Below, piece by piece: positions 22,412 through 62,346 of a stretch of 64,000 bases of DNA. Source of the DNA: an uncultured Chloroflexia bacterium (GTDB lineage Bacteria; Chloroflexota; Limnocylindria; Limnocylindrales; CSP1-4); the NCBI GenBank assembly GCA_963749705.1, contig CAVVNQ010000004.1:86454-150453 (forward strand), in the 5' to 3' direction. The notes under the pieces were generated by a model. The model ran no database searches. It saw only the letters and a list, made by a program, of their open reading frames with translations, and had not been told where the DNA came from. Each line of letters begins with the position of its first letter. Within the stretch, counting starts at the first letter, position 1. Position numbers and translations under genes: made by a program.

Positions 22412-23310
22412 CCGCGGCCACGCTCCCGCACGCCCAGGCCACCGTCGCCAGGAAGAAGGGGCGTCGGCCGAAGTACGGCACCCACGCGTTCCTGATCGCG
22501 ATGTGCGTGCTGTGGATCTTCCCGCTCGCGTGGACGATCTACACCGCGTTCCGGCCCTACGGCGAGACGGCCCGGCTGGGCTACGTGTCGGTCGGCGGTG
22601 CCTACAACCTCGACAACTTCTTCAACGCCGCCAAGGGGATGGACCTGTGGCTGCACCTGTTCGACACGCTGATCGTGGTCGTGCCGGCGATGATCCTGGT
22701 CCTGTTCTTCGCGTCCATGATCGCGTTCGCGGTGTCGCGCTACAGCTTCCGGTTCAACGTCGCGATGCTGATGCTGTTCACGGCCGGCAACCTGCTGCCC
22801 CAGCAGGTCGTGATCACCCCGCTGTACCGGATGTACCTCGCGCTGCCGCTGTTCTCGCCGCTGGCCGACCGCGGGATCTGGTACGACACGTTCTTCGGGA
22901 TGATCGCGATCCATATTGCGTTCCAGCTCGGGTTCTGCACGTTCGTGCTGTCCAACTACTTCAAGCAGGTTCCCAAGGAGATCAACGAGGCGGCAGTGAT
23001 GGACGGGGCGTCCGTGTGGAAGACCTACTGGTCCGTGCTCCTGCCGCTCACCCGCCCGGCGCTGGCGGCGCTTGCCACGCTCGAGTTCACATGGATCTAC
23101 AACGACTTCTTCTGGGGCCTCCTGCTCATGCGGACGGGCGCCAAGTTCCCGATCACCCCGGCCCTCAGCCAGCTGTCGGGCCAGTTCTTCACCGACAACA
23201 ACCTGCTCGCGGCGGGGGCGCTTCTCGTTGCGTTGCCGACGCTGATCGTGTACTTCGCGCTCCAGAAGCACTTCGTCGCCGGCCTGACCCTGGGCTCGAC
23301 CAAGGGCTGA
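22408..23310 (+). CDS. Sugar ABC transporter permease (MalG/UgpE-type)
   Basis: ATGA overlap with the upstream permease; EAA loop EAAVMDGASVWKTYWSVLLPL. Confidence 0.85.
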   Translation: MTAATLPHAQATVARKKGRRPKYGTHAFLIAMCVLWIFPLAWTIYTAFRPYGETARLGYVSVGGAYNLDNFFNAAKGMDLWLHLFDTLIVVVPAMILVLFFASMIAFAVSRYSFRFNVAMLMLFTAGNLLPQQVVITPLYRMYLALPLFSPLADRGIWYDTFFGMIAIHIAFQLGFCTFVLSNYFKQVPKEINEAAVMDGASVWKTYWSVLLPLTRPALAALATLEFTWIYNDFFWGLLLMRTGAKFPITPALSQLSGQFFTDNNLLAAGALLVALPTLIVYFALQKHFVAGLTLGSTKG

Positions 23311-23356
23311 CATGCGACCCCCGGCCACCTGGGCCGGGTCGAGGAGGAACCGCACG

Positions 23357-26300: not shown

Positions 26301-26405
26301 GTGGGCACCGCCAGCTGCGGGCCGGATACCCTCGAGCCGTACGTCCTGCGCCCGGGCACGTACCGCTGGGCGTGGACGATCTCGACGGAGACCACCCCCG
26401 CATGA
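23357..26405 (+). CDS. lacZ: Beta-galactosidase (GH2, LacZ-like); apparent single-base insertion frameshift near 23790-23805
   Basis: N-terminal part (IYTNVQMPFP, ENPTGVYER) in one frame; remainder (WSLGNESGYG, MCEFSHAMGNSNG, AYGGDFGDVPNDGTFVLDGMVFPDRRPKP) in the +1 frame. The junction EISGL/RPGANDLRLTVVKWSD matches E. coli [21 protein letters not shown]. Confidence 0.8.
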
Positions 26406-26418
26406 GGATCCGCCCGAC

Positions 26419-28665: not shown

Positions 28666-28668
28666 GGG

Positions 28669-29937
28669 TCAGCCGCCGCAGCCTTCTCCGGCCACGACGG
28701 GCGGGACCGCCGGGCCCAGCGTGAACCCCTCGCCCAGCGCCGCGAGGAAGGCGGCTCGGAGCGTCGGATCGGCCGCGATCCGCCAGTCCACGACCGCGTC
28801 GACCTCGGCTTCCGTCTTGCGCCACTCGAACCAGTTGACCATCCGGAGCCACGGGAAGCGGACCGATGCCTGCGTCCCGAACACCTGACCAAGCCACGCA
28901 CGCTTGATCTCCGACTCCCCCGCCCCACCCGCGCCGGGACGGTAGAACGCGGCGGTCTCGACGATCGCCAGCGGCTTCGAGAACCGCTCCGCGTAGCCGG
29001 TGTAGAAGTCCGGAACCGACGCCGACCCCGTCATCAGGCCCACGAACGCACCGTCAGGCGGGAGCTCGTTCTCGCCCCACGGATACGCCAGACCCCAGAA
29101 GTACAGGCTCATGCCGACCCAGTCCACGTACCCGGGTCCCGGCCAGTACGGCGCGTACGGATCGTCGGTCGCGTCCAGGATCCCGTCGCCGTCGGTGTCA
29201 AGGGTCGTGGCCGCCGGGCTGCCGGGCGCGGCCCCGTACCGGCCGCCGGCGTATGGGTAGCCGTCTCCCTGGTTGGGCGCCCACAGCATCGCGGACGTCG
29301 GCGAGCCGGCGTGCACCGCATCGGCGACCCGACGGAACGCCGCGACATAGGCCGCCGGATCCTGGCCCCACGGATACCAGCTGCCGTTCATCTCGTGCGC
29401 GAACCGGACGATCGTGGGCACACGTGCCGCGCCATAGCGGGCGAGCCGGGTCGCGAGATTCGCGGCGACGGCGTCGGTCACCGCGGCCAGCCCGCCCCAT
29501 GGCTCGAGCGTGACGACCAGGACGGCCCCGGCGCTCGCGGCCTGGTCCGCCGCGGCGTCGAGGTTGGCCGCGTCGCCGTCGGTGAGCGGGAACGCCACGA
29601 AGCTCACGACGTCGGCGGGTGGCCGGCCCAGCTCCGCCTCGAGCTGTGCGACGGTCTGCGACCCCCAGTCGAGGTTCATCCCCACCCAGGCGCCCGTGTC
29701 CGGCCCGTGGCGGGCAAGGGCGCCGATCGCGTCCGCCGATGACGCGCTCGATGCGCACGGGCTGGTCGCGGCCGACGGGGTGCCGGCGCTCGGGGTGCCG
29801 GCGCTCGGGGCGCTCGCCCCCGTCGATGCGGCGGGGTCGGCCGCGGGCGTCGCCGGGCCCGCGGCACACGCGGCGATGGTGACCGCGAGCACCAGGACGC
29901 GACCGGCGCGACGTACGGGAACAACGATGTGCAGCAT
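28669..29937 (-). CDS. Secreted lipoprotein glycoside hydrolase, GH26-like (mannanase-like)
   Basis: Lipobox LAVTIAAC; RFAHEMNGSWYPWG resembles the GH26 catalytic-acid region; Ser/Ala/Pro-rich linker after the signal. Confidence 0.55.
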   Translation of the reverse strand: MLHIVVPVRRAGRVLVLAVTIAACAAGPATPAADPAASTGASAPSAGTPSAGTPSAATSPCASSASSADAIGALARHGPDTGAWVGMNLDWGSQTVAQLEAELGRPPADVVSFVAFPLTDGDAANLDAAADQAASAGAVLVVTLEPWGGLAAVTDAVAANLATRLARYGAARVPTIVRFAHEMNGSWYPWGQDPAAYVAAFRRVADAVHAGSPTSAMLWAPNQGDGYPYAGGRYGAAPGSPAATTLDTDGDGILDATDDPYAPYWPGPGYVDWVGMSLYFWGLAYPWGENELPPDGAFVGLMTGSASVPDFYTGYAERFSKPLAIVETAAFYRPGAGGAGESEIKRAWLGQVFGTQASVRFPWLRMVNWFEWRKTEAEVDAVVDWRIAADPTLRAAFLAALGEGFTLGPAVPPVVAGEGCGG

Positions 29938-30015
29938 GGGATCGTTGGCCACTGTGGAAGGCGGGTGCGACGCCGTCAACGGGACGATCGTCCGGCGGAC
30001 GCCGCCAGGCTGCGA

Positions 30016-31221
30016 TCAGGCGAGCCGCCGCGCCCCCGCGTTCGCCTCGACCGGGAACACCCGCGGCACCAGCCCCGTCCGGGCCGGGTAGTCGCGCAGC
30101 ACCGCCTCGCGCAGCGCGTCCACCGCGTCCCGGCGCACGAGGTTGATCGTGCAGCCGCCGAACCCCGCCCCGGTCAGCCGGGCGCCGATCACCCCCGGCG
30201 TCGCCCGCGCGATCTCCACCAGCGCGTCGAGCTCCGGGCTGCTCACCTCGTACAGGTCGCGGAGCGACGCGTGGCTCGCGTAGAACAGGCGGCCCACGGT
30301 GTCGAGGTCGCCGGCCTCGAATGCCGCGATCGAGTCCAGCACCCGCTGGTTCTCGGCGACGATGTGCTCGGCCCGGCGGGCGGCGACCGGGGCCAGCCGG
30401 TCTCGCACCCGGTCGAGCATCGAGGGCGTGACGTCACGCAGGGCGGTCACCCCAGGCTCGACCGCGGCGATCGCCGCGACGGCCGCCTCGCACTGCGCGC
30501 GACGCTCGTTGTACGCGGATGCCTCGAGCTTGCGCGGCGATCCCGAGTGGCAGGCGACCAGCGCGACGTCGTCCAGCGGCAGCGGCACCGACCGGTGCTC
30601 GAGCGACCGGCAGTCGAGCAGGAGCGCCCGGCCCGGCTCGCCGAAGACGCACGCGAACTGATCCATGATCCCGTTGTTGAGCCCGATGTAGCCGTTCTCC
30701 GAGCGCTGGACGACATGGACCAGGCGCATCGGGTCGAGCGGCGGCCGGTCACCGCCGGACAGCGCCCAGGCGGCCACCACCTCGATCGCCGCCGACGATG
30801 ACAGCCCGGCGGCCTGCGGGAGGTCCGAGGCGAGCAACCCGCGAAACCCGCGCGGCCCGGTGCCCGCCTCGTCCAGGGCCCAGGCCATGCCGGCCACGTA
30901 GTCGAGCCACGAGTCCCGCCGCTCACCCACCGCATGGACGTCGAACCCGCCGGTCTCGCCGCTCGCCGCCAGCGTCAGCGCCACCCGGTCGTCGTCGGTG
31001 GGGACGAGGGCGATCGAGATCCCGAGGTCGATCGCGAACGGGAGCACGAACCCCTCGTTGTAGTCCGTGTGCTCGCCGATCAGGTTCACGCGCCCGGGCG
31101 CATGCACGACGCGCACGTCGTCGGGCCGAGCGGCGGCGACCGGATCGAGCCTGACCAGCGCATCGCGAAGCGCCGCAGGGTCGCGCGCGAGGGCCGCCTC
31201 CGACGCGGCATCGAGGCTCAT
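30016..31221 (-). CDS. galK: Galactokinase
   Basis: Galactokinase signature GRVNLIGEHTDYNEGFVLPFAID and GHMP kinase motif SSSAAIEVV. Confidence 0.9.
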   Translation of the reverse strand: MSLDAASEAALARDPAALRDALVRLDPVAAARPDDVRVVHAPGRVNLIGEHTDYNEGFVLPFAIDLGISIALVPTDDDRVALTLAASGETGGFDVHAVGERRDSWLDYVAGMAWALDEAGTGPRGFRGLLASDLPQAAGLSSSAAIEVVAAWALSGGDRPPLDPMRLVHVVQRSENGYIGLNNGIMDQFACVFGEPGRALLLDCRSLEHRSVPLPLDDVALVACHSGSPRKLEASAYNERRAQCEAAVAAIAAVEPGVTALRDVTPSMLDRVRDRLAPVAARRAEHIVAENQRVLDSIAAFEAGDLDTVGRLFYASHASLRDLYEVSSPELDALVEIARATPGVIGARLTGAGFGGCTINLVRRDAVDALREAVLRDYPARTGLVPRVFPVEANAGARRLA

Positions 31222-34485: not shown

Positions 34486-35490
34486 TCAGCCGAAGCGCTC
34501 GCGAAGCCTCGGCAGGATGACCTTCCCGTAGCGCGCGATGGCCGTCTCCTGGTCGTTGCCCGGGAAGTGGAACACGAGGTGGTTGAGCCCGTAGGAGAGG
34601 TACGGGGCGATCTGGTCCACGTGCTCGTCGGGATCGTCGGACACGAGCCAGCGGGTGTGCGCGTAGGGCTCGGCGTGCTTGGCGAGGATCTCCATCTGGC
34701 GCGGGTCGTGGACGCCGACCTTCATCTCGCCCGGCAGGGCCAGCGCCGCCCAGACCTTGGTGTCCTCCATCGCCCGCGAACGATCGGGGTCGAAGCTGAC
34801 CTTCATCTCGATCATCCGGTCCATCGCCGCGGCGTCCCGCCCGACCTTCGCGGCCCCCTCGGCGAGCGCCGGCAGGAGGGTGTCGGTGTACAGCTCGGCA
34901 CCCTTGCCGCTGGTGCAGATGAACCCGTCGGCGATCCGCCCGGCGAGCCTCGCCGCGGCCGGACCCGAGGCCGCGATGTAGATCGGGACGGGCGTGTCCG
35001 GGCGATCATAGACCGTCGCCTCGTGGGTGCGGAAGAACTCGCCGCTGAAGTCGACGAACTCCTCGCGCCATAGCCGCCCGATGAGGGTCACCGCCTCCTT
35101 GAGCCGCGCGAACCGCTCCTTCTGTTCGGGCCAGTCCACGCCTACGGGGACCTCGTTCATCGACTCCCCGGTGCCGACGCCCAGGATCACCCGTCCGGGG
35201 GCCAGGCAGGCCAGGGTCGCGAACGCCTGGGCAACGATCGCGGGGTTGTATCGGAATGAAGGGGTGAGCACGCTCGTACCCAGCGTCACCCGCTGGGTCG
35301 CCTGGGTCGCGGCACCCAGCCAGACGAGCGCGTTGGGGGCATGACCGTCGGTGTGGCGCCAGGGCTGGAAGTGGTCGCTCGTCCATACGGAGTCGAACCC
35401 CGCGGCCTCGGCCGCCACCGCGAGGTCCAGCAGGCGGCGGGGCGGAAACTGCTCTGCGGACGCCTTGTAGCCGAGGGTCAGTCGGGGCAT
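34486..35490 (-). CDS. fgd: F420-dependent glucose-6-phosphate dehydrogenase
   Basis: Near-collinear similarity to mycobacterial Fgd1 (LGYKASAEQFPPRRLLDLAVAAEAAGFDSVWTSDHFQPWRH ... NHLVFHFPG). Confidence 0.85.
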   Translation of the reverse strand: MPRLTLGYKASAEQFPPRRLLDLAVAAEAAGFDSVWTSDHFQPWRHTDGHAPNALVWLGAATQATQRVTLGTSVLTPSFRYNPAIVAQAFATLACLAPGRVILGVGTGESMNEVPVGVDWPEQKERFARLKEAVTLIGRLWREEFVDFSGEFFRTHEATVYDRPDTPVPIYIAASGPAAARLAGRIADGFICTSGKGAELYTDTLLPALAEGAAKVGRDAAAMDRMIEMKVSFDPDRSRAMEDTKVWAALALPGEMKVGVHDPRQMEILAKHAEPYAHTRWLVSDDPDEHVDQIAPYLSYGLNHLVFHFPGNDQETAIARYGKVILPRLRERFG

Positions 35491-36513: not shown

Positions 36514-37479
36514 CTACCCGGATCCGGCCGCCGGCCAGCCGCCGAGCTCGGCGAGCGTCGGCGGATCGGCGCCGGCTCGCTCGCAGGCCATCGCGGACGC
36601 GCGGACCGCGAACCGCGCCGCGTCGAGCGCCGACCGGGCGTCATGGAGGCCTGCTCGTCCCACCCCGGCGCGGACGATGGCGGCGAGGAAGGCACCGCCG
36701 AACGTATCGCCCGCACCCACCGTGTCGACGACCCGCACCCTCGGGACCGGCACCACGTGGTTCGCACCCCCCGCGTGCACCGTGACCGAGCGACCGCCGT
36801 CGGTGAGCAGGACGACCCGGTCGCCATCCCCGGCCAGCCGGGCGACCGCCTCGGGCAGCGGGACCCCCGGCTGCAGGTAGGCGAGGTCGTCGGCGCTGAC
36901 CTTGACCACGTCGGTCCGCTCCATCACGCGCGCCACCCGCGCCCGGTAGCCATCCGGATCGGCGGTGATCGATGGCCGGCAGTTGGGATCGACCATGAGG
37001 ATCACGTCATCGGGAAGCGTCGCCGCCAGCGATTCCAGCGTGGTGGCCATCGGCTCGAGCACGAACCCCAGCGTGCCCAGGTGCACGGCGCGCGTCGCTG
37101 CCGGCAGCCCGGCTTGGAGCGGCCCGATGTCCACCGCCGGCGCGGACGTCCCATCCACGTAGAACCGGTACGCCGCGACGCCGTGCTCGTCGAGCTCGGC
37201 CAGGGCGAGCGTCGTCGGCAGGTCAGTTCGCTGGACGTGGTCGAGCGACACGCCGTCGCGGACGAGCCCGGTCTCCAGCATCCGCCCGAAGCGATCCGAC
37301 GACAGCCCGCCGATCCAGGCCACCGGAACCCCCAGGCGGGCGACGGCCCGGGCAGTGTTGTACGGTCCGCCACCGGGTGCCGGCACCAGCCGTCCGTCGG
37401 CGAGCACGATCAGGTCGATCAGCGCCTCGCCGGCGACCACGATCAGCGCCGGTTCGCCGGACGTTTCCTGGCTGGTCAT
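36514..37479 (-). CDS. PfkB-family carbohydrate kinase (ribokinase/deoxyribokinase/fructokinase-like)
   Basis: PfkB signature DTVGAGDTFGGAFLAA and an N-terminal GG motif; divergent from the BMC operon. Confidence 0.8.
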   Translation of the reverse strand: MTSQETSGEPALIVVAGEALIDLIVLADGRLVPAPGGGPYNTARAVARLGVPVAWIGGLSSDRFGRMLETGLVRDGVSLDHVQRTDLPTTLALAELDEHGVAAYRFYVDGTSAPAVDIGPLQAGLPAATRAVHLGTLGFVLEPMATTLESLAATLPDDVILMVDPNCRPSITADPDGYRARVARVMERTDVVKVSADDLAYLQPGVPLPEAVARLAGDGDRVVLLTDGGRSVTVHAGGANHVVPVPRVRVVDTVGAGDTFGGAFLAAIVRAGVGRAGLHDARSALDAARFAVRASAMACERAGADPPTLAELGGWPAAGSG

Positions 37480-37572: not shown

Positions 37573-37601
37573 TTGACACGGCTCGTGGCCGGACCTAGCA
37601 T
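37573..37601 (+). promoter_or_regulatory. Sigma70-like promoter of the BMC operon: TTGACA-N17-TAGCAT
   Basis: Consensus -35 hexamer at 37573-37578 and a -10-like hexamer at 37596-37601 with 17-nt spacing, about 25 nt upstream of the sorC-type regulator start. Confidence 0.4.
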
Positions 37602-37608
37602 GCGACCT

Positions 37609-37641
37609 GCACATATGAGCATTGATGTACGCACATGAGCA
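37609..37641. promoter_or_regulatory. Direct repeat GCACAT(AT)GAGCA x2 with 22-bp periodicity straddling the regulator start codon; candidate SorC-family operator
   Basis: Copies at 37609-37621 and 37631-37641, immediately downstream of the predicted -10. Confidence 0.35.
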
Positions 37642-38650
37642 ACGCGGGGCGCGCGTGACGACCGTCGCTGCCCCGGTTCGCGGCGCCTCGGATCCGCGCC
37701 TGCTCGTTCGCGTCGCGCGGATGTACTACGGCATGGCGCTGACCCAGGAGGAGATCGGCGCGAGGCTCGGTCTGAGCCGGTTCAAGGTCGGCAGGCTGCT
37801 GGACCGGGCGGTCCGCGAGTCGATCGTGCGGATCGAGATCGTCCACCCCGCCGCCCGGCTGGTCGAGATCGAGGAGCAGCTGGTCGCCCGCTTCGGGCTG
37901 CGCGCGGCGGTCGTCGCCGACGCCGGGTCCGGTCCGGTCACCGCGGAGGGGTCGGTCGAGGCCGCGACCGCCGTCGCGCGGGAGGCGGTGGCCAGGGCTG
38001 CCGCCCGGTATCTCGCCGAGATCCGACCGACGGGCGCGATCGGCGTGTCGTGGGGCCGGACGATGCTCGAGCTGGCCCGTGCCCTGGAGCCGGGCTGGAC
38101 GACCGCGACCGAGATCGTCCAGCTCAACGGGGCGACGTCACGCTCGGCGACGCCGACGCGTGCCGGCGAGATCGTGGACCGGTTCGGGGTCACCAGCGGC
38201 GGATCGATCCGGCTCATGCCCGCGCCGGCGATCGTGGGGTCGGCCGCGCTGCGGACCGCGCTCGAGGCGGACCCGTCCGTGGGCGACACGCTGCAGGCGG
38301 CCCGGCGGGCGCCGTTCGCCGTGTTCAGCCTCGGCATCCCGGAGCCCGGCAGCGTCCTCGTGGAGTCCGGGTTCGTGGCGCCCGCGGACCGGAAGCTCCT
38401 GCGCCGGGCGGGCGCGGTCGGCGACATCCTGGGCCGGTTCCTCGCACCCGACGGCCGGATCGCGCTGCCGGACCTCGACCAGCGCACGGTCGGCCTGCCG
38501 CTCGACGAGCTCGCGGCCAAGGACCACACCATCGGGCTCGCCGCCGGACCCGGTCGCGGTCCCATCGCGCTCGCGGCCATCCGCGCGGGCTGCGTGAACA
38601 CCCTGATCACCGACGAAGGAACGGCTGACTGGCTGGTTGCGCATGGCTGA
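37625..38650 (+). CDS. SorC/DeoR-type sugar-phosphate-binding transcriptional regulator
   Basis: N-terminal HTH ARMYYGMALTQEEIGARLGLSRFKVGRLL and a C-terminal sugar-binding domain; first gene of the BMC operon. Confidence 0.8.
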   Translation: MYAHEQRGARVTTVAAPVRGASDPRLLVRVARMYYGMALTQEEIGARLGLSRFKVGRLLDRAVRESIVRIEIVHPAARLVEIEEQLVARFGLRAAVVADAGSGPVTAEGSVEAATAVAREAVARAAARYLAEIRPTGAIGVSWGRTMLELARALEPGWTTATEIVQLNGATSRSATPTRAGEIVDRFGVTSGGSIRLMPAPAIVGSAALRTALEADPSVGDTLQAARRAPFAVFSLGIPEPGSVLVESGFVAPADRKLLRRAGAVGDILGRFLAPDGRIALPDLDQRTVGLPLDELAAKDHTIGLAAGPGRGPIALAAIRAGCVNTLITDEGTADWLVAHG

Positions 38651-39266
38651 GCCGCGGATCCGCCCCACCGAGCAGGACGTGCGGGACGTGGTCCGGCGCA
38701 TCGTCGACGCCGTGTACGTACCCTCGGCCACGGTCGCCCCGACGACGGCGGCCGCACACATCGATGCCGGGGCCGCCGACGGGCAGCGTCCGTCCTCCAT
38801 CGCCATCGGCGCCGACCATGGCGGCTTCCGGCTCAAGGAGCAGCTCCGGCAGGCGCTGGCCGAGCGCGGCCACGCGGTCCACGACTGCGGGACCGGCAGC
38901 GAGGACGCGGTCGACTACCCGGATCTCGCGCTGGCCGTCGCGAAGCTGGTCGCCGACGGCACGTGCAGCGTCGGGATCGTCGTGGACGGCGCCGGCATCG
39001 GCTCGTGCATGGCCGCCAACAAGGTGCCCGGCGTACGCGCCGCCATGTGCTACGACCTCTCAACGGCACGCAACAGCCGCGAGCACAATCACGCCAACGT
39101 GCTCACGCTCGGGGCGCGGCTCATCGGCGCCGGGCTTGCGCTCGACATCGTGACCGAGTGGCTGGCCACGCCCTGGGGGCCGGGTCGCCACGCGGCCCGC
39201 GTCGACAAGATCACCGCCATCGAGCGGCACTACCTGAAGGACGGCACCGGGGTTGGGACGCGATGA
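38643..39266 (+). CDS. rpiB: Ribose-5-phosphate isomerase B-like sugar-phosphate isomerase with an N-terminal amphipathic-helix extension (candidate encapsulation peptide)
   Basis: RpiB/LacAB core [10 protein letters not shown]...[10 protein letters not shown]. The about 55-aa N-terminal extension contains the amphipathic helix [16 protein letters not shown] followed by a Pro/Ala/Thr linker. Overlaps the regulator's end by 8 nt. Confidence 0.75.
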
Positions 39267-40129
39267 CGACGATCGATGACCGGGACCTGCTGATCGAGAC
39301 GATCACGCGGGAGGTGCTGGCGACGTTCTCGCTGGGCGGCGAGACGTGCATCAACTGCGGCGGGTCGTGCGCCGCGCATTGCGCGGACAAGGTCCGCGAC
39401 GTCGTGACCAACGGCGCCAGCCGGATCGCGTACCACGGCCGGGGCAGCGACGTGCCGCTGGACCTCGCCGGCTACATCGACCACACCCTGCTCCGCCCCG
39501 ACGCCACCGCGGCCGACATCGACCGCCTGTGCGCGGAGGCCGTCGAGCACCACTTCGCGGCGGTGTGCATCAACCCCACCTGGATCCGACGCGCGGCGGA
39601 CAACGTGCGCGGGACCGATGTCGCGGTCGCCTCGGTGATCGGCTTCCCGTTCGGCGCCGCGACGACCGAGGTCAAGGCCATGGAGGCGCGCCGCGCCATC
39701 CGCGACGGGGCGCGCGAGATCGACATGGTGATCAACATCGGGGCGCTCAAGAGCGGCATGCTGGACGCGGTCCGCGAGGACATCGATCGCGTCTCCGACG
39801 CATGCCACGAGTCCGGGGCCCTCAACAAGGTGATCATCGAGACCGCGCTCCTCACCGACGAGGAGAAGGTCATCGCGTGTCACCTCGCGAAGGAGGCCAA
39901 GGCTGACTTCGTCAAGACCTCCACCGGCTACGCCTCGGGTGGCGCGACCGTGTTCGACGTCGCCCTCATGCGCGAGGCGGTGGGCTCACGGATGGGCGTC
40001 AAGGCCTCGGGCGGGATCCGTACCGCCGAGGATGTCCAGGACATGATCGCCGCCGGCGCCACCCGGATCGGGGCCTCCGCCGGCGTCAAGATCGTCACAG
40101 GAGAGAGGGGAGCGCGTGAGCAATATTGA
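39263..40129 (+). CDS. deoC: Deoxyribose-phosphate aldolase (DeoC-like class I aldolase) with an N-terminal encapsulation-peptide-like extension
   Basis: DeoC core (Schiff-base lysine region [24 protein letters not shown]) preceded by an about 60-aa extension containing the amphipathic [15 protein letters not shown]; ATGA overlap with rpiB. Confidence 0.8.
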
Positions 40130-40745
40130 CCTTCGCGCCTATGTCTTCCTCGACAGCCTCCAGGCGCAGTACGCCGCGTTCCTGGGGACCGTCGCGCAGG
40201 GGTTCCTGCCGCTGGCCGGCGATGCGTCGCTGTCGATCGAGGTGTCGCCGGGCATCGAGATCAACCGGCTGACGGACATCGCCCTCAAGTCCACCTCGGT
40301 CAAGCCGGGGATGCAGATCATCGAGCGCTACTACGGCATGCTCGAGGTCCACTCCCCCTCGCAGGCGGAGGTCCGGGCGGCCGGGGCGGCCATCCTGCGC
40401 GAGATCGGGCTCGAGGAGACGGACCGGATCAAGCCCCGGATCCTGTCCAGCCAGATCATCCGCCGCATCGACGATCACCAGGCGCAGCTGATCAACCGCA
40501 CCCGCCACGGCCAGATGCTGATCCCGGGCGAGACGCTGTACGTGCTCGAGCTCGAGCCCGCGGCCTACGCGGCCCTCGCCGCCAACGAGGCGGAGAAGGC
40601 GGCCCACATCAACATCCTCGAGGTCCGCTCGTTCGGCTCGATGGGCCGGATCTACCTGGGCGGCGAGGAACGGGACATCGACGTCGGCTGGCGCGCGGCG
40701 CTGGCCTCGATCGAGGGCCTCGACGGCCGCGAGGCCAAGAGCTGA
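40116..40745 (+). CDS. BMC-T shell protein, tandem circularly permuted BMC-domain type (PduB/EutL-like)
   Basis: About 209 aa with two repeated halves, each having a G-x-L-x-V/I hydrophobic beta-strand followed by a helix ([24 protein letters not shown]; [25 protein letters not shown]); GTG start after a GGAGAGAGGGGAG ribosome-binding site. Confidence 0.55.
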
Positions 40746-40791
40746 CACCCACCACCAATACCGGCAATCACAACGGCGAAGGAGAGGATCG

Positions 40792-41100
40792 ATGGCTGAA
40801 GCACTGGGCATGATCGAGGCGCGCGGGTTCGCCGCGATGGTCGAGGCGGCCGACGCGATGGTCAAGGCGGCCAAGGTCGAGCTGGTGAGCTACGAGAAGA
40901 CCGGCGGCGGCTACGTGACCGCGGTCGTGCGCGGTGACGTCGCGGCGGTCAAGGCGGCCGTCGAGGCGGGCGTCCGGGCCGCCACCAAGGTCGGCGAGGT
41001 GGTCACCAGCCACGTCATCGCGCGGCCGCACAGCAACGTGGACCTCGTCCTCCCGCTCGGTCGTGCCGAGCAGGCCAAGGGCGAGAAGGGCGACGACTGA
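40792..41100 (+). CDS. BMC-H hexameric shell protein (PduA/EutM/CcmK family)
   Basis: Canonical [29 protein letters not shown]...[23 protein letters not shown]; strong AAGGAGAGG ribosome-binding site. Confidence 0.9.
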
Positions 41101-41158
41101 CGTTCGCACCAGGGGCCGCGGTCGCAGCGCGATCGCGGCCCGGACCCGGGAGGAAGCC

Positions 41159-41446
41159 ATGCTCCTTGGACGGGTGGCCGGAACGGTCGTCTCCAGCCGC
41201 AAGGAACCGCTGATCGAGGGCTGGAAGCTGCTCCTCGTGCGCCAGCTCGACACCGACAACCACGAGGGCGGCGGCTACGTCGTCGCCGCCGACGCCGTGG
41301 GCGCCGGGGTGGGCGAGGTCGTCCTGTACGCGACGGGCAGCTCCGCGCGCCAGACCGAGATGACCAGGGATCGACCGTGCGACGCCGTGATCATGGCGAT
41401 CGTCGACACCTGGGAGGTCGGCGGTCGTGAGATCTATCGGAAGTAG
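41159..41446 (+). CDS. BMC-P pentameric vertex protein (EutN/CcmL/PduN family), paralogue 1
   Basis: [31 protein letters not shown]...[10 protein letters not shown] typical of EutN/CcmL. Confidence 0.85.
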
Positions 41447-41449
41447 CCG

Positions 41450-42910
41450 ATGAGCGACCTCAGCGAGCGCGACATCCAGGACATCATCGAGCGCGTCAGG
41501 CGGCGGATCGACGCCGCCTCCGAGGGCCGGGTGGGCACGGCGCTGCGCGCCGAGGCCGAGCTGGCCGCCGCGCCCACCGAGCTGGGCGACGGGATCCACG
41601 CCACGATCGACGACGCGGTCGCGGCGGCCACCGGCGCGTTCCGCGAGTTCCAGTCCATGGGCCTCGACGGGCGGCGGGTGATCATCGAGGCGATCCGGCA
41701 GTCGATGCTCGACCACGCGGAGCAGCTCGCGCGGATGGCCCATCAGGAGACGCACCTCGGGCGGTACGAGGACAAGGTCGTCAAGAACCGCCTGGTGACG
41801 ATGAAGGCGGCGGGCCCCGAGGACCTCGAGGTCGAGGCGGTGTCCGGCAGCCTGGGCATGATGGTCACGGAGTGGGCGCCGTTCGGTGTCGTGGCCGCGA
41901 TCACGCCGGTCACCAACCCGACCTCCACGGTGATCAACAACACGATCAGCATCGTGTCCGCCGGCAACGCGGTCGTGTTCAACGCCCACCCCAACGCGAA
42001 ACGAAGCTCCGCGGAGACGATCCGCCTGATCAACCGCGCGATCGTCGGCGCCGGCGGCCCGTCGGACCTGGTGACCGCGATCGTGGAGCCGACGATCGAC
42101 AGCGCCCGGGCCCTGATGAGCCACCCCGGCGTCCGGGTGCTGCTGGTCACCGGTGGTCCGGGCGTCGTCCGCGAGGCGCTGCGGACCGACAAGCGGGCGA
42201 TCACGGCCGGCCCCGGCAACCCGCCCGCGGTGGTCGACCAGACGGCGGACGTCGAGCGCGCGGGCCGCGACATCGTGCGCGGCGCGTCGTTCGACAACAA
42301 CATCATCTGCACCGACGAGAAGGTCGTGCTGGTCGTGGACTCGGTCGCGGACCGGCTGATCCGCGCGATGACCCACAACGGCGCCTACCTGCTCAAGGAG
42401 CACGAGCTCCGACGCCTGGAGCGGGTGATCTTCCGGGAGCTCGGCGAGCCGGGCAAGCCCGGCGTCATCAACCCCGCCTGGATCGGCCGCGACGCCGCGA
42501 AGATCCTGGCCGAGATCGGGGTCAGCGTGGAGCCCGAGCCGCGGCTGCTGATCGCGGAGGTGCCGCGGGATCACAGCCTGGTGTGGACCGAGCAGATGAT
42601 GCCGGTGCTCCCCGTGGTGCGGGTCGGGACCGTCGACCAGGCGATCGACCTCGCCGTCCGAGCCGAGCATGGGTTCCGGCACACCGCGTCGATCCACTCG
42701 ACCAACGTGGACACGATCACGCGCATGGCCCGGGCCATGAACTGCAGCATCTTCGTGGCCAACGGACCCAACTTCGCGGGGCTGGGCGAGGGCGGCGAGG
42801 GGTTCTCGTCGTTCTCCATCGCCTCCCCCACCGGCGACGGCCTGACCCGGCCGCGGACCTTCTCGCGCGAGCGGCGGATCACCGTCGTCGGCGCGCTCCG
42901 GATCGTCTGA
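41450..42910 (+). CDS. CoA-acylating aldehyde dehydrogenase (PduP/EutE family) with an N-terminal encapsulation peptide
   Basis: ITPVTNPTSTVINN, catalytic FDNNIICTDEK and MAHQETHLG motifs; the N-terminal amphipathic DIQDIIERVRRRI matches a PduP-type encapsulation peptide. Confidence 0.85.
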   Translation: MSDLSERDIQDIIERVRRRIDAASEGRVGTALRAEAELAAAPTELGDGIHATIDDAVAAATGAFREFQSMGLDGRRVIIEAIRQSMLDHAEQLARMAHQETHLGRYEDKVVKNRLVTMKAAGPEDLEVEAVSGSLGMMVTEWAPFGVVAAITPVTNPTSTVINNTISIVSAGNAVVFNAHPNAKRSSAETIRLINRAIVGAGGPSDLVTAIVEPTIDSARALMSHPGVRVLLVTGGPGVVREALRTDKRAITAGPGNPPAVVDQTADVERAGRDIVRGASFDNNIICTDEKVVLVVDSVADRLIRAMTHNGAYLLKEHELRRLERVIFRELGEPGKPGVINPAWIGRDAAKILAEIGVSVEPEPRLLIAEVPRDHSLVWTEQMMPVLPVVRVGTVDQAIDLAVRAEHGFRHTASIHSTNVDTITRMARAMNCSIFVANGPNFAGLGEGGEGFSSFSIASPTGDGLTRPRTFSRERRITVVGALRIV

Positions 42911-42912
42911 CC

Positions 42913-43503
42913 ATGCAGCCGGCCATCGCCCTGCTCGAGCTCGACTCGATCGCCGTCGGGATCGAGACCGGCGATGCGATGGCCAAGCGCTCCCCCATCG
43001 ACGTCATCTACGCCGGGACCGTCCACCCCGGCAAGTACCTGGTGCTCGTGGGCGGGGCGGTCGCGGACGTCGAGGAGGCGCTCGAGGCCGGGCGCGCCGT
43101 CGGCGGACCATCGATCCTCGACGTCGTCCTGCTCCCGGACGTCCATCCCCAGGTGGTGGCCGCGATCCGCGGCACCCGGCGAGCATCTTCGGGCGAGGCA
43201 CTGGGGATCATCGAGACCCAGACGGTGGCCGCGATCATCGATGCGGCCGACGCCGGGGTGAAGGGCGCGCGGGTCCGGCTGCTCGAGCTTCGCCTCGCCG
43301 ACGGCATCGGCGGCAAGGCGTACCTGCTGTTCGGCGGCGGCGTAGCCGATGTCGAGGCGGCGGTCGAGCTTGGCCGCGACCGGATCGGCGCCGCCGCGCG
43401 CTCGATCTCCCGCGTGATCCCCCAGCTCCATGGCGAGATGCGCGTCAACCTCGAGGCCGACTCCCGGTTCCGCGACCGGATTGCCGCTCGAGAGGACGCC
43501 TGA
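42913..43503 (+). CDS. BMC-T shell protein, standard tandem BMC-domain type (PduT-like; no Cys for an Fe-S site)
   Basis: Two PF00936-like domains (IALLELDSIAVGIETGDAMAKRSPIDVI; ALGIIETQTVAAIIDAADAGVKGARVRLLEL). Confidence 0.75.
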   Translation: MQPAIALLELDSIAVGIETGDAMAKRSPIDVIYAGTVHPGKYLVLVGGAVADVEEALEAGRAVGGPSILDVVLLPDVHPQVVAAIRGTRRASSGEALGIIETQTVAAIIDAADAGVKGARVRLLELRLADGIGGKAYLLFGGGVADVEAAVELGRDRIGAAARSISRVIPQLHGEMRVNLEADSRFRDRIAAREDA

Positions 43504-43504
43504 G

Positions 43505-43885
43505 ATGCAGCTCGCGCGGGTCATCGGCACCGTCGTGGCGACGATCAAGTCGCCCGGGCTCGAGGGCGTCCCGCTGCTGATCGTGCAGCCGCTCGACCGG
43601 CGGCAGCAGGCCGAGGGGACGCCGGTCGTCGCCGCGGACGCGGTCCGGATGGCCGGACCCGGCGAGCTCGTGTACATCGTCGCCGCCCGCGAGGCGTCGC
43701 TCGCCCTGGACGAGCCGTTCGTACCGGTCGACCATGCGATCGTGGGCATCGTGGACGCGGTCGCCACCGATGGGGAGCGCGACCCACGCGGAACCGGCGA
43801 ACCACGCGGAGCGGGGGCGCCATCCGCCGGCCATCCCGCGACGCGCCGGAAGCGGGCGCCGTCACGCGGAAGGGGCACGCCATGA
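43505..43885 (+). CDS. BMC-P vertex protein, paralogue 2, with a basic Arg/Pro-rich C-terminal tail of about 40 aa
   Basis: MQLARVIGTVVATIKSPGLEGVPLLIVQPLD core; tail ATDGERDPRGTGEPRGAGAPSAGHPATRRKRAPSRGRGTP. Confidence 0.8.
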   Translation: MQLARVIGTVVATIKSPGLEGVPLLIVQPLDRRQQAEGTPVVAADAVRMAGPGELVYIVAAREASLALDEPFVPVDHAIVGIVDAVATDGERDPRGTGEPRGAGAPSAGHPATRRKRAPSRGRGTP

Positions 43886-44229
43886 AGCTCGCGCGGGTGG
43901 TCGCCACGGTCACCTCGACGATCAACGTGCCGCTGTTCGACGGCCGCAAGCTGCTGCTGTGCGACCTGCTCGATCCTGAGGGCGCCGACGCGGGCGGGTA
44001 CCTGATCGCCGTCGACACCGTGGGTGCCGGCCCGGGCGAGACGGTGCTGCTCATGGACGAAGGGAACTCCGCGCGCCAGATCCTGGACGCGCGGGACGCG
44101 CCGGTCCGCACGCTGGTGGTGGGGATCGTCGACGCGGTGGAGCTCGCGAAGCCGGTGGGCGATGCGTCGACGGTGGCGCGGCGCACGCCCAACCGCGCTC
44201 GACCCGCACGCCGCCGCGCGGCCGAATGA
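43882..44229 (+). CDS. BMC-P vertex protein, paralogue 3
   Basis: MKLARVVATVTSTINVPLFDGRKLLLCDLLD...YLIAVDTVGAGPGE; ATGA overlap. Confidence 0.8.
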   Translation: MKLARVVATVTSTINVPLFDGRKLLLCDLLDPEGADAGGYLIAVDTVGAGPGETVLLMDEGNSARQILDARDAPVRTLVVGIVDAVELAKPVGDASTVARRTPNRARPARRRAAE

Positions 44230-44666
44230 CCCCGGACGACGGGGTCCCCCGGCGCGTCCGCCTTGCCGCCTACGCGTGGATCGAGGACGACGGGCGGGTG
44301 GTCCTGGTCCGTGTCGCCGCCGGGTCGCCGGGAGCCGGCGAGTGGACGCTGCCCGGGGGCGGGCTCCGGTTCGGGGAGGACCCGGTCGACGGCGTCGTCC
44401 GCGAGGTGGCCGAGGAGACCGGCCTGACGGTCAGGGTCGGCAGCCTCGTCGCGGTCCGATCGACCGTGCTCGAGCCCGGGGAGACGCCGAGCGGCGACCG
44501 AATCCACGCGGTCGGGCTCGTGTACCGGGCGAGCGCCGACGACGGCGAGCTTCGCCACGAGGCTGACGGATCCACCGACATGGCGGCGTGGATCTCGTTC
44601 GACGAGCTCGATGCGCTCGCGTCGGCGCGGCTGCTGCGCTGGGCGCGGAGCGTGGTTGGTCGATGA
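44226..44666 (+). CDS. NUDIX hydrolase
   Basis: Nudix box GGGLRFGEDPVDGVVREVAEETGL; ATGA overlap with the last BMC-P gene. Confidence 0.8.
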   Translation: MTPDDGVPRRVRLAAYAWIEDDGRVVLVRVAAGSPGAGEWTLPGGGLRFGEDPVDGVVREVAEETGLTVRVGSLVAVRSTVLEPGETPSGDRIHAVGLVYRASADDGELRHEADGSTDMAAWISFDELDALASARLLRWARSVVGR

Positions 44667-46558
44667 CCCGAACGACGCCCCCCTCCGCGCGCTACCCTGC
44701 CGCCATGTCGAACCTTCCGTTGTGGGAGCGCCGTTTCCGCGCGCCCGTCCTGTCCTTTCCGTCATGGTCAGCGGAGGCGCCGGACAGGATCGTGGTCGCC
44801 TCCACCGAGAGCGGGAGCTACCAGCTCCACACCTGGGACCGGGCCACCGGCCGTCGCCGGCAGGTCACCCGGGACCCCGTCGGGGTCACCGAGGGCCGGC
44901 CGACCCGCGATGGCACGGGGGTGATCTGGTTCCGCGACGACACGGGAGATGAGACAGGTACCTTCGTGATCGCCCCGTTCGACGAGGACGTCGCGCCCGA
45001 GCCGTTGATCGAAGGGTTGCCCAGGGGCTGGTCCGAGGGCCTCGCGATCGGCCGGACGCGCTCGGTCGCCGTGGTCAGCTCGATCGACGGGTTCTCGGTG
45101 TGGACCGCGGCCAACGGCTCGGCTGCGCGCCGGATCCACGCCCACCGGCAGCCGGTCCGGCTGGCCGGAGGCTGGGGCGTGATCGCGTCGGTGGACCGCA
45201 ACGCCCTGTCGGCCGACGACGCGGTCGTCGTGCTCGAGATCATGGAGGACGGCGACGTCCTGCACCCGTCGCTGCGGGCGATCGACGCCGACACCGGCGA
45301 GACCGTCCGCGACCTGCGGGATCCGGGGCTCGAGCTCGCGGGGTTCGGCTTCTCGCCCGTGCCCGGCGACCGCCGCATCGCGATCACGCACGAGCGGACC
45401 GGCGATCGGCGGCCGGCCCTGTGGGACACGGACAGCGGTGAGGTCATCGACCTCGACATCGACCTCGAGGGGCCGGTGGAGCCGGTCGGCTGGTGGCCGG
45501 ATGGCTCGGCGCTCCTCCTGCAGCAGCTCGTCGAGGGCCGCCACCGCCTCCATCGCTACGACCTGGCCGGCGGACGCGTCGAGGCCCTCGACACGGTGCT
45601 GGGCTCGATCACCGCCGCGGCCGTCCGGCCCGACGGCTCCGTGTGGTATCGCGTCCATGCCGGCGAGCATCCGGCGATGCTCCTGGCGGTGGGCTCGCCG
45701 ACGCCGCTCCTGGTCGCCGATGGAGCCCCGGCGCCGGCGGGCCGGCCGTTCGAATCCTGGTGGTTCGCCAATCCCGACGGGCAGCAAGTGCACGGCTTCC
45801 TCGTCCACCCCGAGGGGCCCGGGCCGCACCCCGTGATGATGCGCGTGCACGGTGGCCCGCAATCCACCGACATGGACCGGTGGGCGCCCGACATCCAGGC
45901 ACACGTGGACGCCGGCTTCCTGGTCGCGATGGTCAACTACCGTGGATCCGAGGGGTTCGGCCGGCAATGGCGCGATGCGCTCACCGGCAACGTCGGCTTC
46001 CTCGAGCTCGAGGACGTCCTTGCCGGGCTCGACGACCTCGTCGCCCGGGGCCTCGCGGACCCGTCTCGAGCGGTGCTCGCCGGCTGGTCATGGGGCGGGT
46101 ACATCACGCTGCTGGGCATGGGCCGCCACCCTGGGCGCTGGGTCGCCGGCATCGGCGGCGTGCCCGTGGCCGACTACATCGCGGCCTACGAGGACGAGGC
46201 TCCCACCCTGCAGGCGCTCGACCGTGCGCTGTTCGGCGGGTCGCCCGAGACGGTGCCGGACCTGTTCGTGGAGCGCAACCCGATCACGTACGCCGACGAT
46301 GTCCGCGCACCGCTGCTGATCCTCGCCGGCGAGAACGACAGCCGCTGCCCGATCCGCCAGGTGTGGAACTACGTCGAGCGGCTGCGCGCGCGTGGCGTCG
46401 AGCCGCAGGTGTACACGTACGCGACGGGACATGCGTCGTACGACATCGAGGAACGGGTCCGCCAGACGCGGATCGTGCTCGAGTTCCTGGCCAGGACCGT
46501 GCCGGGCGTGCGGCGGCTCGACGGGCTGGACGCTCCGCTGGAGGCGGCGCCGGCGTAG
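44663..46558 (+). CDS. S9-family serine peptidase (prolyl oligopeptidase / acylaminoacyl-peptidase-like; beta-propeller plus alpha/beta hydrolase)
   Basis: Catalytic GWSWGGY nucleophile elbow, C-terminal Asp and His regions, N-terminal propeller; ATGA overlap with the nudix stop. Confidence 0.8.
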   Translation: MTRTTPPSARYPAAMSNLPLWERRFRAPVLSFPSWSAEAPDRIVVASTESGSYQLHTWDRATGRRRQVTRDPVGVTEGRPTRDGTGVIWFRDDTGDETGTFVIAPFDEDVAPEPLIEGLPRGWSEGLAIGRTRSVAVVSSIDGFSVWTAANGSAARRIHAHRQPVRLAGGWGVIASVDRNALSADDAVVVLEIMEDGDVLHPSLRAIDADTGETVRDLRDPGLELAGFGFSPVPGDRRIAITHERTGDRRPALWDTDSGEVIDLDIDLEGPVEPVGWWPDGSALLLQQLVEGRHRLHRYDLAGGRVEALDTVLGSITAAAVRPDGSVWYRVHAGEHPAMLLAVGSPTPLLVADGAPAPAGRPFESWWFANPDGQQVHGFLVHPEGPGPHPVMMRVHGGPQSTDMDRWAPDIQAHVDAGFLVAMVNYRGSEGFGRQWRDALTGNVGFLELEDVLAGLDDLVARGLADPSRAVLAGWSWGGYITLLGMGRHPGRWVAGIGGVPVADYIAAYEDEAPTLQALDRALFGGSPETVPDLFVERNPITYADDVRAPLLILAGENDSRCPIRQVWNYVERLRARGVEPQVYTYATGHASYDIEERVRQTRIVLEFLARTVPGVRRLDGLDAPLEAAPA

Positions 46559-58721: not shown

Positions 58722-58723
58722 GC

Positions 58724-60736: not shown

Positions 60737-61049
60737 TGCGTCGTCGGCCGGCTCCTGGTCCGGCGTCTCGCGGACGCCGCCCGCGCGCGGCAACCCTGTG
60801 CCCGTCGGCGGCACGTCCAGACCACCCGGCGCGCCCGCAAACGGGTTGTCGAGCCCGCTCGTCTCGCCGCTCCGACGCCAGTCGGTCCTGTCGTGATCAC
60901 CCACCGCACAAGTCTGCCCCACCCGCGGCCACCCTGCGAGGCCGGCGTGACCGCATGACGTGCTGCGGCGCCCGATCGCTCACGTTCGATGACCGACCCG
61001 GAACGGGACCGCGATTCGTGCACGGATCCCGAGCGGCATCCACCGAAGC

Positions 61050-62321: not shown

Positions 62322-62346
62322 GCCAATCCCTCGCACTCCCTCCTCC

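Follow-up and report, generated by a model that had tools for sequence, protein, structure and literature searches.

A 64,000-nt stretch of DNA from an uncultured Chloroflexia bacterium (contig CAVVNQ010000004.1 of assembly GCA_963749705.1), which as a whole is called the window here, carries an operon for a bacterial microcompartment (BMC) which most probably encodes a catabolic organelle, i.e., a metabolosome, of subtype 3 of the sugar-phosphate-utilising class (SPU3). The window has a GC content of about 72%, and all positions are given in window coordinates and on the (+) strand unless stated otherwise. Listing of the open reading frames (ORFs) and inspection of their start codons yielded one run of co-oriented genes on the (+) strand, which starts at 37625 or 37655 and ends at 46558. 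The following features make up its promoter region and its first ten genes:

37573..37601, + strand, sigma-70-like promoter TTGACA-17 nt-TAGCAT found by promoter scan
37608..37621, + strand, predicted operator site 1, imperfect palindrome TGCACA-TA-TGAGCA
37628..37641, + strand, predicted operator site 2, TACGCA-CA-TGAGCA, 20 bp from site 1
37655..38650 (alternative start ATG 37625), + strand, transcription regulator of the SorC/DeoR family, sorC (PF04198 167 bits and a helix-turn-helix, HTH)
38643..39266, + strand, RpiB-like protein, rpiB, the 'RPI' of SPU loci (PF02502 178 bits)
39263..40129, + strand, deoxyribose-5-phosphate aldolase (DERA), deoC (TIGR00126 283 bits, cut-off 117)
40116..40745, + strand, BMC-Tdp, CcmP-like permuted tandem BMC protein (NCBIfam CcmP 340.3 bits, cut-off 340)
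40792..41100, + strand, BMC-H, major hexamer (PF00936 104 bits)
41159..41446, + strand, BMC-P1, vertex pentamer (PF03319 99 bits)
41450..42910, + strand, CoA-acylating aldehyde dehydrogenase (AldDH) of the EutE/PduP type, aldh (PRK15398 618 bits, cut-off 403)
42913..43503, + strand, BMC-Ts, PduT-like tandem BMC protein (PF00936 112 bits, 2 domains)
43505..43885, + strand, BMC-P2, vertex pentamer (PF03319 88 bits)
43882..44229, + strand, BMC-P3, vertex pentamer (PF03319 85 bits)

A preliminary description of this DNA had placed ten genes in this order between 37625 and 44229. All ten are present and intact, their families were confirmed by Pfam and NCBIfam, and all ten ORFs are of full length when compared with the models of these families. 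The coordinates were borne out within a few bases, except that sorC more likely starts at GTG 37655 than at ATG 37625, because the former aligns with the start in the closely related locus L001. The promoter begins at 37573, exactly where the described feature had been taken to start. From sorC to the gene of an S9-family peptidase downstream of BMC-P3 the junctions measure -8, -4, -14, +46, +58, +3, +2, +1, -4, -4, and -4 nt, and the statement that nearly all of them are overlaps or gaps of no more than 3 nt is correct for nine out of eleven. The two larger gaps precede the genes of BMC-H and BMC-P1 and carry the strong ribosome-binding sites GGAGAGG and GGGAGGA. The genes of BMC-P2 and BMC-P3 overlap by ATGA and the BMC-P1 gene is set apart, and deoC and the BMC-Tdp gene share 14 nt. 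Intrinsic terminators were not found in 9.9 kb, a result which is uninformative at 72% GC, and a search for riboswitches, other RNA elements, and tRNAs found none.

When the models PF00936, PF03319, and CcmP were run on the locus they matched the shell genes across 40116–44229, and no pseudogenes were found among these. By sequence the locus holds a complete shell gene set consisting of one BMC-H, one BMC-Tdp, one BMC-Ts, and three BMC-P. Pfam BMC scores BMC-Tdp at just 19.6 bits, the sole weak Pfam match among the genes of the operon, because the domain is permuted in this protein. Comparison with structures in the PDB gave a full length alignment with CcmP of the beta-carboxysome (PDB 4HT5/5LSR; 292 bits with 4HT5), 176 bits with CsoS1D, and 230–242 bits with the proteins BMC-T2 and BMC-T3 of Haliangium ochraceum. 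The 'ER' dipeptide of BMC-Tdp, located in the sequence IIERYYG, aligns with an 'ER' in CcmP, which we take to be the Glu-Arg gating pair of a stacked, gated pore. Assignment to a beta-carboxysome was considered and rejected: the score exceeds the cut-off of the CcmP model by only 0.3 bits, the adjoining genes encode DERA, AldDH, and RPI, and the 64 kb are free of carboxysome genes. The context is that of a heterotrophic metabolosome, and as RuBisCO, CcmM, and CcmN are lacking, the protein is therefore to be regarded as a CcmP-like BMC-Tdp rather than as a carboxysome component.

BMC-H is the sole single-domain PF00936 gene of the locus and shows the standard KAAK and ARPH interface motifs. BMC-Ts scores 136 bits with the PduT entry 3N79, where its TVHPGKY is aligned with TISPGKF and a histidine stands opposite a serine; this serine presumably occupies the position of the cysteine which ligates the Fe-S cluster in wild-type PduT. 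The same protein scores 103 bits with PDB 5DIH, an entry deposited merely as 'Microcompartments protein', which we take to be BMC-T1 of H. ochraceum. The shell inventory of the latter organism is like that of the window, with one BMC-H, tandem BMC-T proteins of both types (Ts and Tdp), and three BMC-P, but it includes two BMC-Tdp paralogues, and the main H. ochraceum locus is devoid of DERA and RPI.

Among the enzymes, DERA has its catalytic residues D154, K218, and K247 at a spacing of 64/29, which is the same as in the characterised DERA of subtype SPU6. It carries an N-terminal extension of 71 amino acids, composed of a helix and then a CX2CX3CX3C motif (residues 29–40, window 39341–39376). 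With this extension included, the protein is found in more than 120 protein clusters at an identity of at least 76% in public metagenomes. The catalytic cysteine of AldDH is located in the motif DNNIICTDE. At its N-terminus AldDH has the helix RDIQDIIERVRRRID with a hydrophobic moment of 0.86, followed by a linker, and its C-terminus is plain. RPI also begins with a helix, with a hydrophobic moment of 0.80, which is above the maximum elsewhere in RPI. Both helices follow nearly the same pattern, E-x-D-[VI]-x-D-[VI]-[VI]-x-R-[IV], and each of them is more amphipathic than any other 15-mer of its own protein. Judged by these features the two helices and the extension of DERA are predicted to be of the kind that targets cargo into shells, i.e., to resemble encapsulation peptides.

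Comparison of RPI with RpiB of C. thermocellum (3HE8) aligned VVDGAGIGS with VICGTGLGI. In RPI the catalytic cysteine is replaced by aspartate and the adjacent threonine by alanine, and the histidine is retained; the two replaced residues are presumably the equivalents of C66 and T68 of the E. coli enzyme. Because both are replaced, a pentose-isomerisation step should not be assumed, and the gene product, named an isomerase in the preliminary description, is not a canonical one. The sequence DGAG is present at the active site in 60 of 60 BMC-linked copies with a readable site in the fetched loci of SPU3 and SPU6 type, and it belongs to a near-invariant motif DGAGIGSxxxANK, of which DGAGIGS comprises residues 108–114 in the window (38964–38984). 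Conservation to this degree points to an alternative active site that has been kept rather than to decay of the enzyme.

The SPU class goes back to Axen et al. 2014, who defined it, and has since grown to more than 280 loci from 26 phyla in seven subtypes through the work of Sutter et al. 2021 (Nat Commun). SPU3 is described in Supplementary Data 2 of the latter work with 31 loci from many phyla including Chloroflexi and Actinobacteria. Its enzymes are AldDh and proteins with pfam01791 and pfam02502, with RPI located before DERA, and the encapsulation peptides (EPs) are N-terminal on AldDh and DERA. Its shell combines a single BMC-H of the standard type with a triplet of BMC-P, a BMC-Tdp from the CcmP-like clade, and a BMC-Ts which lacks a pore cysteine and is not accompanied by PduS (Sutter 2021). 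In the window all features of the class are found, namely a DERA with extension beside shell genes, an acylating AldDH, the exchange of cysteine to aspartate in RPI, and three BMC-P. Those of SPU3 are found as well: the CcmP-like Tdp, the Ts without pore cysteine or PduS, the single BMC-H, the N-terminal EP of AldDH, and the lack of a phosphotransacylase (PTAC). Thus, comparison with the Sutter catalogue bears out the SPU-class metabolosome of the preliminary description in every testable feature of SPU3, and membership in the SPU class is near certain. No difference that defines a subtype separates the published SPU3 from the window locus, and the two adjacent members of the BMC-P triplet are also the same in both. 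RPI and DERA are fused in 12–20 of the SPU3 loci of Sutter 2021 and encoded by separate genes in the window, and the SorC regulator with its conserved operator, the basic tails of the BMC-P proteins, and the Nudix and S9 genes attached downstream, all of which are seen in the window, do not feature in the published description. None of the genes in the 64-kb window encodes a signature enzyme of the PDU, EUT, or GRM types (diol dehydratase, ethanolamine ammonia-lyase, glycyl-radical enzyme). Also PTAC (pfam06130 or pta), alcohol dehydrogenase (AlcDH), PduS, and triose-phosphate isomerase were looked for across the 64-kb window and not found.

The assignment is in accordance with the distribution of related loci. 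A scan of the species representatives of GTDB gave 80 loci, onto which the window proteins were mapped, and 83 related loci were considered for gene conservation, with L001–L003 being the closest long contigs. The nearest DERA loci are from metagenome-assembled genomes (MAGs) of Chloroflexota, and ArgG of the window is 83–89% identical to proteins named Ca. Limnocylindrales or Chloroflexota. The host is accordingly most likely a Limnocylindria-like member of the Chloroflexota, and an actinobacterial origin, which the GC content of 72% and an F420-dependent glucose-6-phosphate dehydrogenase had suggested, was rejected on these grounds. In L001–L003, with a DERA identity of 89%, the order is sorC-rpiB-deoC-Tdp-H-P-aldh-Ts-P-P and then S9, without Nudix. 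A first group of loci, group A, comprises 26 independent loci with the gene order of the window and an AldDH which is 51–92% identical. Their hosts are Chloroflexota, Acidimicrobiia, Thermoanaerobaculia, Calditrichia, Neomarinimicrobiota, Ardenticatenaceae, Promineifilaceae, and a few other lineages. Recurrence of a ten-gene order in 26 independent loci is far beyond chance. In all 14 orthologues from group A with a readable motif the pore position of BMC-Ts is occupied by histidine or glutamine and never by cysteine. The second group, group B, consists of 24 loci with the order rpiB-deoC-P-aldh-H-Tdp-P-P, the AldDH of which is 30–36% identical and has a C-terminal EP; the hosts are Anaerolineae including Levilinea saccharolytica, and the pattern is that of the published SPU6. 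By its sequence the window locus is assigned to group A, which corresponds to SPU3.

SPU6, which is confined to Chloroflexi, was rejected by gene order, AldDH branch, EP position, and presence of BMC-Ts: in the window the AldDH is only 30–36% identical to that of group B and has its EP at the N-terminus, a BMC-Ts is present, and the genes are arranged in another order. The SPU6 system of Chloroflexi bacterium GWB2_54_36, the only SPU system with biochemically characterised enzymes, nevertheless shares with the window the DERA extension of about 70 amino acids, the catalytic spacing, the exchange of cysteine to aspartate and the N-terminal EP in RPI, the BMC-P triplet, and the proposed conversion of 2-deoxyribose-5-phosphate (dR5P) into glyceraldehyde-3-phosphate plus acetaldehyde and further to acetyl-CoA. 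It differs in gene order (rpiB-deoC-P-aldh-H-Tdp-P-P), in its AldDH, which belongs to another, EUT3-like branch (30–36% identity) and has a C-terminal EP, in the lack of BMC-Ts, in a BMC-Tdp of about 50% identity, in a GntR/UTRA regulator instead of SorC, and in the cysteine motif of DERA, which reads CX3CX4CX3C rather than CX2CX3CX3C.

The promoter TTGACA-17-TAGCAT is the only promoter-like match in 9.9 kb, where 0.3 are expected from shuffles. Just downstream of it lie two imperfect palindromes of 14 bp, TGCACATATGAGCA (37608–37621) and TACGCACATGAGCA (37628–37641), spaced by 20 bp, with the consensus TGMACA-N2-TGWGCA from the two copies. Their shared core CRCANNTGAGCA occurs in the 64 kb just at these two palindromes, 0.16 occurrences being expected. 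A promoter TTGACA-17-TAGNNT with two sites about 20 bp apart is also located before sorC in L001, L003, L004, L005, L008, L009, L014, and L039, and the same arrangement is found in the AT-rich loci L060 and L066 of Neomarinimicrobiota. The skeleton G..CA..TG..C, which was derived from the window alone and has 0.02–0.05 matches expected per promoter, lies 32–59 nt after the -35 hexamer in nine of nine other promoters of sorC that were correctly anchored, among them those of AT-rich Neomarinimicrobiota. We infer that the palindromes represent a predicted SorC operator of SPU3 operons, which overlaps the transcription start and is autoregulated.

Close relatives likewise have the regulator gene as the first of the operon, and in Neomarinimicrobiota the protein is 37–38% identical. 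Its best model in NCBIfam is DeoR_Bac (NF053881) with 211 bits, below the equivalog cut-off of 420 bits. An earlier comparison with DeoR of Bacillus therefore holds at the level of the family and not at the level of the equivalog, and the protein is by its sequence classed as a member of the SorC family and not as an orthologue of Bacillus-type DeoR. The inducer of Bacillus DeoR is deoxyribose-5-phosphate, and repeated sites are the usual targets of repressors of the SorC family. DeoR of Bacillus subtilis, the repressor of dra-nupC-pdp, has the same architecture as the window regulator, an HTH and a PF04198 sugar-binding domain; the window regulator differs by its score (211 vs 420 bits), and its operator TGMACA-N2-TGWGCA is a prediction only.

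Pairwise ratios of nonsynonymous to synonymous substitutions (dN/dS) were calculated against four relatives, L001, L003, L005, and L008. They range from 0.04 to 0.54 over all ten genes with the maximum in RpiB and SorC. For the genes of the shell and the core enzymes 0.04–0.2 was obtained against the three closest relatives and 0.15–0.46 against L008. In particular, the genes of BMC-Tdp, BMC-H, BMC-P1, and AldDH yielded 0.04–0.11 against L001 and L003 and 0.15–0.46 against L008, and BMC-Tdp alone yielded 0.04–0.06 against L001, L003, and L005 and 0.24 against L008. These low values indicate that the genes are maintained by purifying selection. A silent or decaying relic which no longer forms an organelle, a reading to which the lack of cofactor-recycling enzymes in the pathway might lend itself, is extremely improbable in view of these ratios, which even at their upper end (RpiB and SorC) do not exceed 0.54, and of ORFs which are full length, a promoter and operators which are conserved, and translational coupling and strong ribosome-binding sites which are retained.

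For an SPU3 organelle in this bacterium a substrate and cofactor logic can be outlined which is plausible by analogy to other members of the class. The pathway drawn from DERA and acylating AldDH in the preliminary description is the one proposed in the SPU literature. 2-Deoxyribose-5-phosphate of presumed DNA origin would enter the shell via the pore of BMC-H or the gated BMC-Tdp and would be cleaved by DERA to glyceraldehyde-3-phosphate, which would exit to glycolysis, and acetaldehyde. AldDH would then convert the trapped acetaldehyde oxidatively to acetyl-CoA, using NAD+ and CoA. As PTAC, AlcDH, and PduS are lacking in the 64 kb and there is no Fe-S pore, the cofactors must then cross the shell; NAD(H), CoA, and acetyl-CoA would do so most plausibly via the gated BMC-Tdp pore of about 14 Å. 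A gated BMC-Tdp as cofactor route for subtypes without PTAC has been suggested by Dwyer, Sutter & Kerfeld 2024 (PMC11585597). RPI would probably serve as a binding partner of DERA or as an adaptor for encapsulation, as in the SPU6 pair, or have some other activity, and would probably not isomerise ribose-5-phosphate (R5P). The regulator of SorC/DeoR type would probably repress its own promoter via the two palindromes just downstream of the -10 box, and a phosphosugar, with dR5P as the obvious candidate, would release it.

The statement of the preliminary description that no member of the SPU class has been characterised is outdated, since the SPU6 pair of DERA and RPI has been studied in vitro (PMC11585597) and Asgard shells of SPU type have been described (PMC12747264). 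The SPU6 DERA deprived of its extension of about 70 amino acids is a dimer which is active on dR5P, and the Michaelis-Menten constant (Km) of the SPU6 enzyme for dR5P is about 0.1 in the units printed there (PMC11585597). According to the same work all SPU RPIs carry the exchange of the catalytic cysteine to aspartate, SPU6 RPI has negligible R5P isomerase activity, and SPU6 RPI and DERA form a complex of about 1:1, in which RPI with its EP may act in packaging of the core (PMC11585597).

The same organelle might also work on another substrate, with RPI being an active isomerase which feeds a promiscuous DERA, or with some other reaction in which a sugar phosphate gives rise to an aldehyde. 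The conservation of xxDGAGIGSxxxANK in all readable RPI copies together with the retained histidine resembles selection on an active site, activity of RPI on rare sugar phosphates has been left possible by Dwyer et al. (PMC11585597), and no genes which supply dR5P are seen in the 64-kb window. DERA, however, is a DeoC at equivalog level (283 vs 117 bits) with its catalytic triad intact, its SPU6 counterpart cleaves dR5P, a pathway link from RPI to DERA is not known (PMC11585597), and rpiB is under weaker constraint than any other gene of the block (dN/dS 0.3–0.5). Moreover, nucleoside phosphorylases adjoin sister loci: in L005 (16571–18784), L006 (6419–8671), and L014 (18852–20898), which come from the nearest MAGs among the GTDB representatives, the genes of a pyrimidine- and a purine-nucleoside phosphorylase are direct neighbours, oriented convergently to the operon at a distance of 0.9–5 kb, which fits an origin of the substrate from deoxynucleosides. 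Taken together, use of another substrate than dR5P appears unlikely.

Several points weigh against the proposed dR5P pathway and have to be set beside the evidence in its favour. The only SPU biochemistry comes from the SPU6 DERA/RPI pair, which is 51–57% identical to the window proteins. Neither deoA, deoB, and deoD nor a nucleoside transporter or a deoxyribokinase was identified in the 64-kb window, so that the supply of dR5P is not visible there, and homologues of the nucleoside phosphorylases of L005, L006, and L014 are likewise missing from the window. The predicted gene set offers no PTAC, AlcDH, or PduS for the recycling of NAD+ and CoA. The regulator stays below the equivalog cut-off of DeoR, and dR5P is a candidate effector. 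Finally, the invariant DGAGIGS suggests a catalytic site in RPI which is maintained, and the true substrate could differ.

As a separate observation, a gene of the HhH-GPD family (DNA glycosylase-like) is located upstream of group-A loci in six MAGs (L010, L011, L038, L055, L062, and L070). In L038, L055, L062, and L070, which belong to Ardenticatenaceae and Promineifilaceae, it lies on the same strand, 278–364 nt upstream of rpiB, and in L010 and L011 from Acidimicrobiia it lies on the opposite strand at a distance of 510 nt and 4,055 nt, respectively. The Pfam scan covered the L011 copy only. This gene may be another link to DNA catabolism.

The preliminary description had counted twelve genes to the operon and had also seen a fitting part in a divergent kinase gene. 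The three genes concerned are the following:

44226..44666, + strand, Nudix hydrolase (PF00293 74 bits), overlapping BMC-P3 by ATGA
44663..46558, + strand, S9-family serine peptidase (PF00326 132 bits)
36514-37479, divergent from the operon, PfkB kinase, fructokinase-like (127 bits)

If these were working parts of the pathway, Nudix might, for example, supply (deoxy)ribose phosphates and PfkB might phosphorylate the sugar. The Nudix and S9 genes each overlap their upstream neighbour by ATGA, no terminator-like site lies between the shell genes and them, and synteny of S9 extends to the three closest contigs. The conserved block, however, comprises ten genes, as Nudix and S9 are not kept with it in relatives: Nudix is missing at the corresponding position in L001–L003, in spite of their 89% DERA identity, and in all other loci compared, and S9 is found downstream only in L001–L003, where it is 56–71 nt apart from BMC-P3. 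Both proteins are without an N-terminal amphipathic helix, and the families of Nudix, S9, and PfkB are not listed for SPU loci in two published catalogues. PfkB stands beside the locus in just one of the 83 related loci (L003), has a fructokinase as its best NCBIfam model, and adjoins a GH36/GH2/GalK/GalT cluster. A pathway which includes these three proteins is thus very unlikely. Nudix is probably co-transcribed and S9 possibly so, both as lineage-specific passengers and not as conserved components of an SPU locus. PfkB is probably unrelated to the microcompartment.

More specific functions for these neighbours were considered and rejected. Nudix as a pyrophosphatase for ADP-ribose or dNTP gave no match at equivalog level (best 40 bits vs a cut-off of 200). 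PfkB as a deoxyribokinase or ribokinase was dismissed since ribokinase models reach 68–70 bits vs cut-offs of 300–341 and since the gene is not conserved with the locus; its top matches in the PDB are entries named 'Ribokinase:Carbohydrate kinase, PfkB', followed by fructokinases. PfkB adjoins an F420-dependent glucose-6-phosphate dehydrogenase and transporters. This dehydrogenase is encoded at 34486–35490 (-), scores 442 bits with a cut-off of 420, and is syntenic with the SPU3 locus in L001–L003. Further upstream a galactoside cluster from 17853 to 31221 comprises GalT, a sugar ABC transporter, a GH2 beta-galactosidase, a GH36 alpha-galactosidase, a GH26-like protein, and GalK, and PfkB may belong with the sugar metabolism of this cluster rather than with the microcompartment. 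The sugar ABC transporter lies in a stretch of lower GC content (0.65–0.67) at 20–24 kb. A polyphosphate/phosphate cluster is located at 54829–63407, with polyphosphate kinase, a CYTH-CHAD protein, a Ppx/GppA phosphatase, a PstS-like binding protein, and a permease. An ORF of 1,201 amino acids at 633–4238 (-) has a coding-like codon bias and no match in Pfam at E <= 1e-4.

Two further details were noticed in the SPU3 proteins. One concerns the vertex pentamers. BMC-P2 and BMC-P3 have basic tails rich in proline, alanine, and arginine, of 40 amino acids in BMC-P2 (window 43763–43882) and 29 amino acids in BMC-P3 (window 44140–44226), both of which finish in clusters of arginine and lysine. A basic tail is borne by P2 or P3 in nine close loci, including L003, L005–L010, and L014, and P1 is without one in all of them. 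In archaea, a 2025 bioRxiv preprint reports the assembly of SPU-type shells of Hodarchaeales with EP-dependent recruitment of cargo, and the K/R-rich intrinsically disordered region (IDR) of the Asgard protein AMC-P2, which has a length of 36–137 amino acids, binds DNA and RNA, a feature stated to be 'not observed in BMCs' (PMC12747264). The Hodarchaeales compartments have a core of DERA and AldDH and a basic-tailed pentamer paralogue in common with the window, and the pentamer tails of the window are comparable to the DNA-binding tails of these archaeal SPU compartments. The window tails are, however, shorter (29–40 amino acids) and rich in arginine, proline, and alanine, with a composition at the level of GC-rich read-through, and the PTAC, MNdh/PduS, and flavoprotein-DERA fusion of the Hodarchaeales loci are all absent from the window locus. 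The BMC-P tails may be selected DNA-binding IDRs, but their net charge is indistinguishable from what a random translation of this GC-rich DNA without stop codons would give (P 0.06–0.58). Mild enrichment is seen solely for the terminal K/R cluster, in tails which had been picked post hoc.

The other detail is the four-cysteine motif in the DERA extension. Exactly four cysteines are present in this extension in 12 of the 26 group-A loci and three or more in 20 of the 26, the motif is missing altogether from six group-A loci, and the variant CX3CX4CX3C is found in 19 of 24 SPU6 loci. The pattern suggests a metal site which is dispensable, maybe for Zn or Fe-S. The main text of Dwyer et al. 2024 (PMC11585597) makes no mention of the motif. 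The site might confer a redox or assembly function, perhaps offsetting the missing PduS/PduT electron conduit. That the SPU3 organelle of soil Chloroflexota and Acidimicrobiia carries both as undescribed functional add-ons, i.e., pentamer tails on P2 and/or P3 which tether nucleic acids and a metal or Fe-S site formed by the four cysteines of the DERA extension, is a speculative proposal which we consider rather unlikely. If true, either of them would make this the first BMC with a DNA-capturing shell or with a metallated encapsulation domain.

The SPU3 type is already catalogued, and the locus is a well-preserved further example of it and not a new kind of system. New but minor are the conserved tandem palindromic operator, the four-cysteine motif of DERA, and the basic tails of BMC-P2 and BMC-P3. 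The picture of SPU microcompartments is refined by these data and not changed, and nothing in them would surprise a specialist in the field. SPU are among the most widespread BMC types, and the literature is without an in vivo or organelle-level study of a bacterial SPU compartment and without a study of an SPU3 component; in the literature searched there was also no paper which links Limnocylindria-like Chloroflexota to microcompartments. With the present locus a compact and intact SPU3 template of ten genes is available from an apparently Limnocylindria-like soil bacterium of the Chloroflexota, and close homologues of the locus are abundant in metagenomes. The invariant motif of RPI bears on the question of the role of this protein in SPU organelles, and the predicted promoter and operator provide a handle on what induces them.

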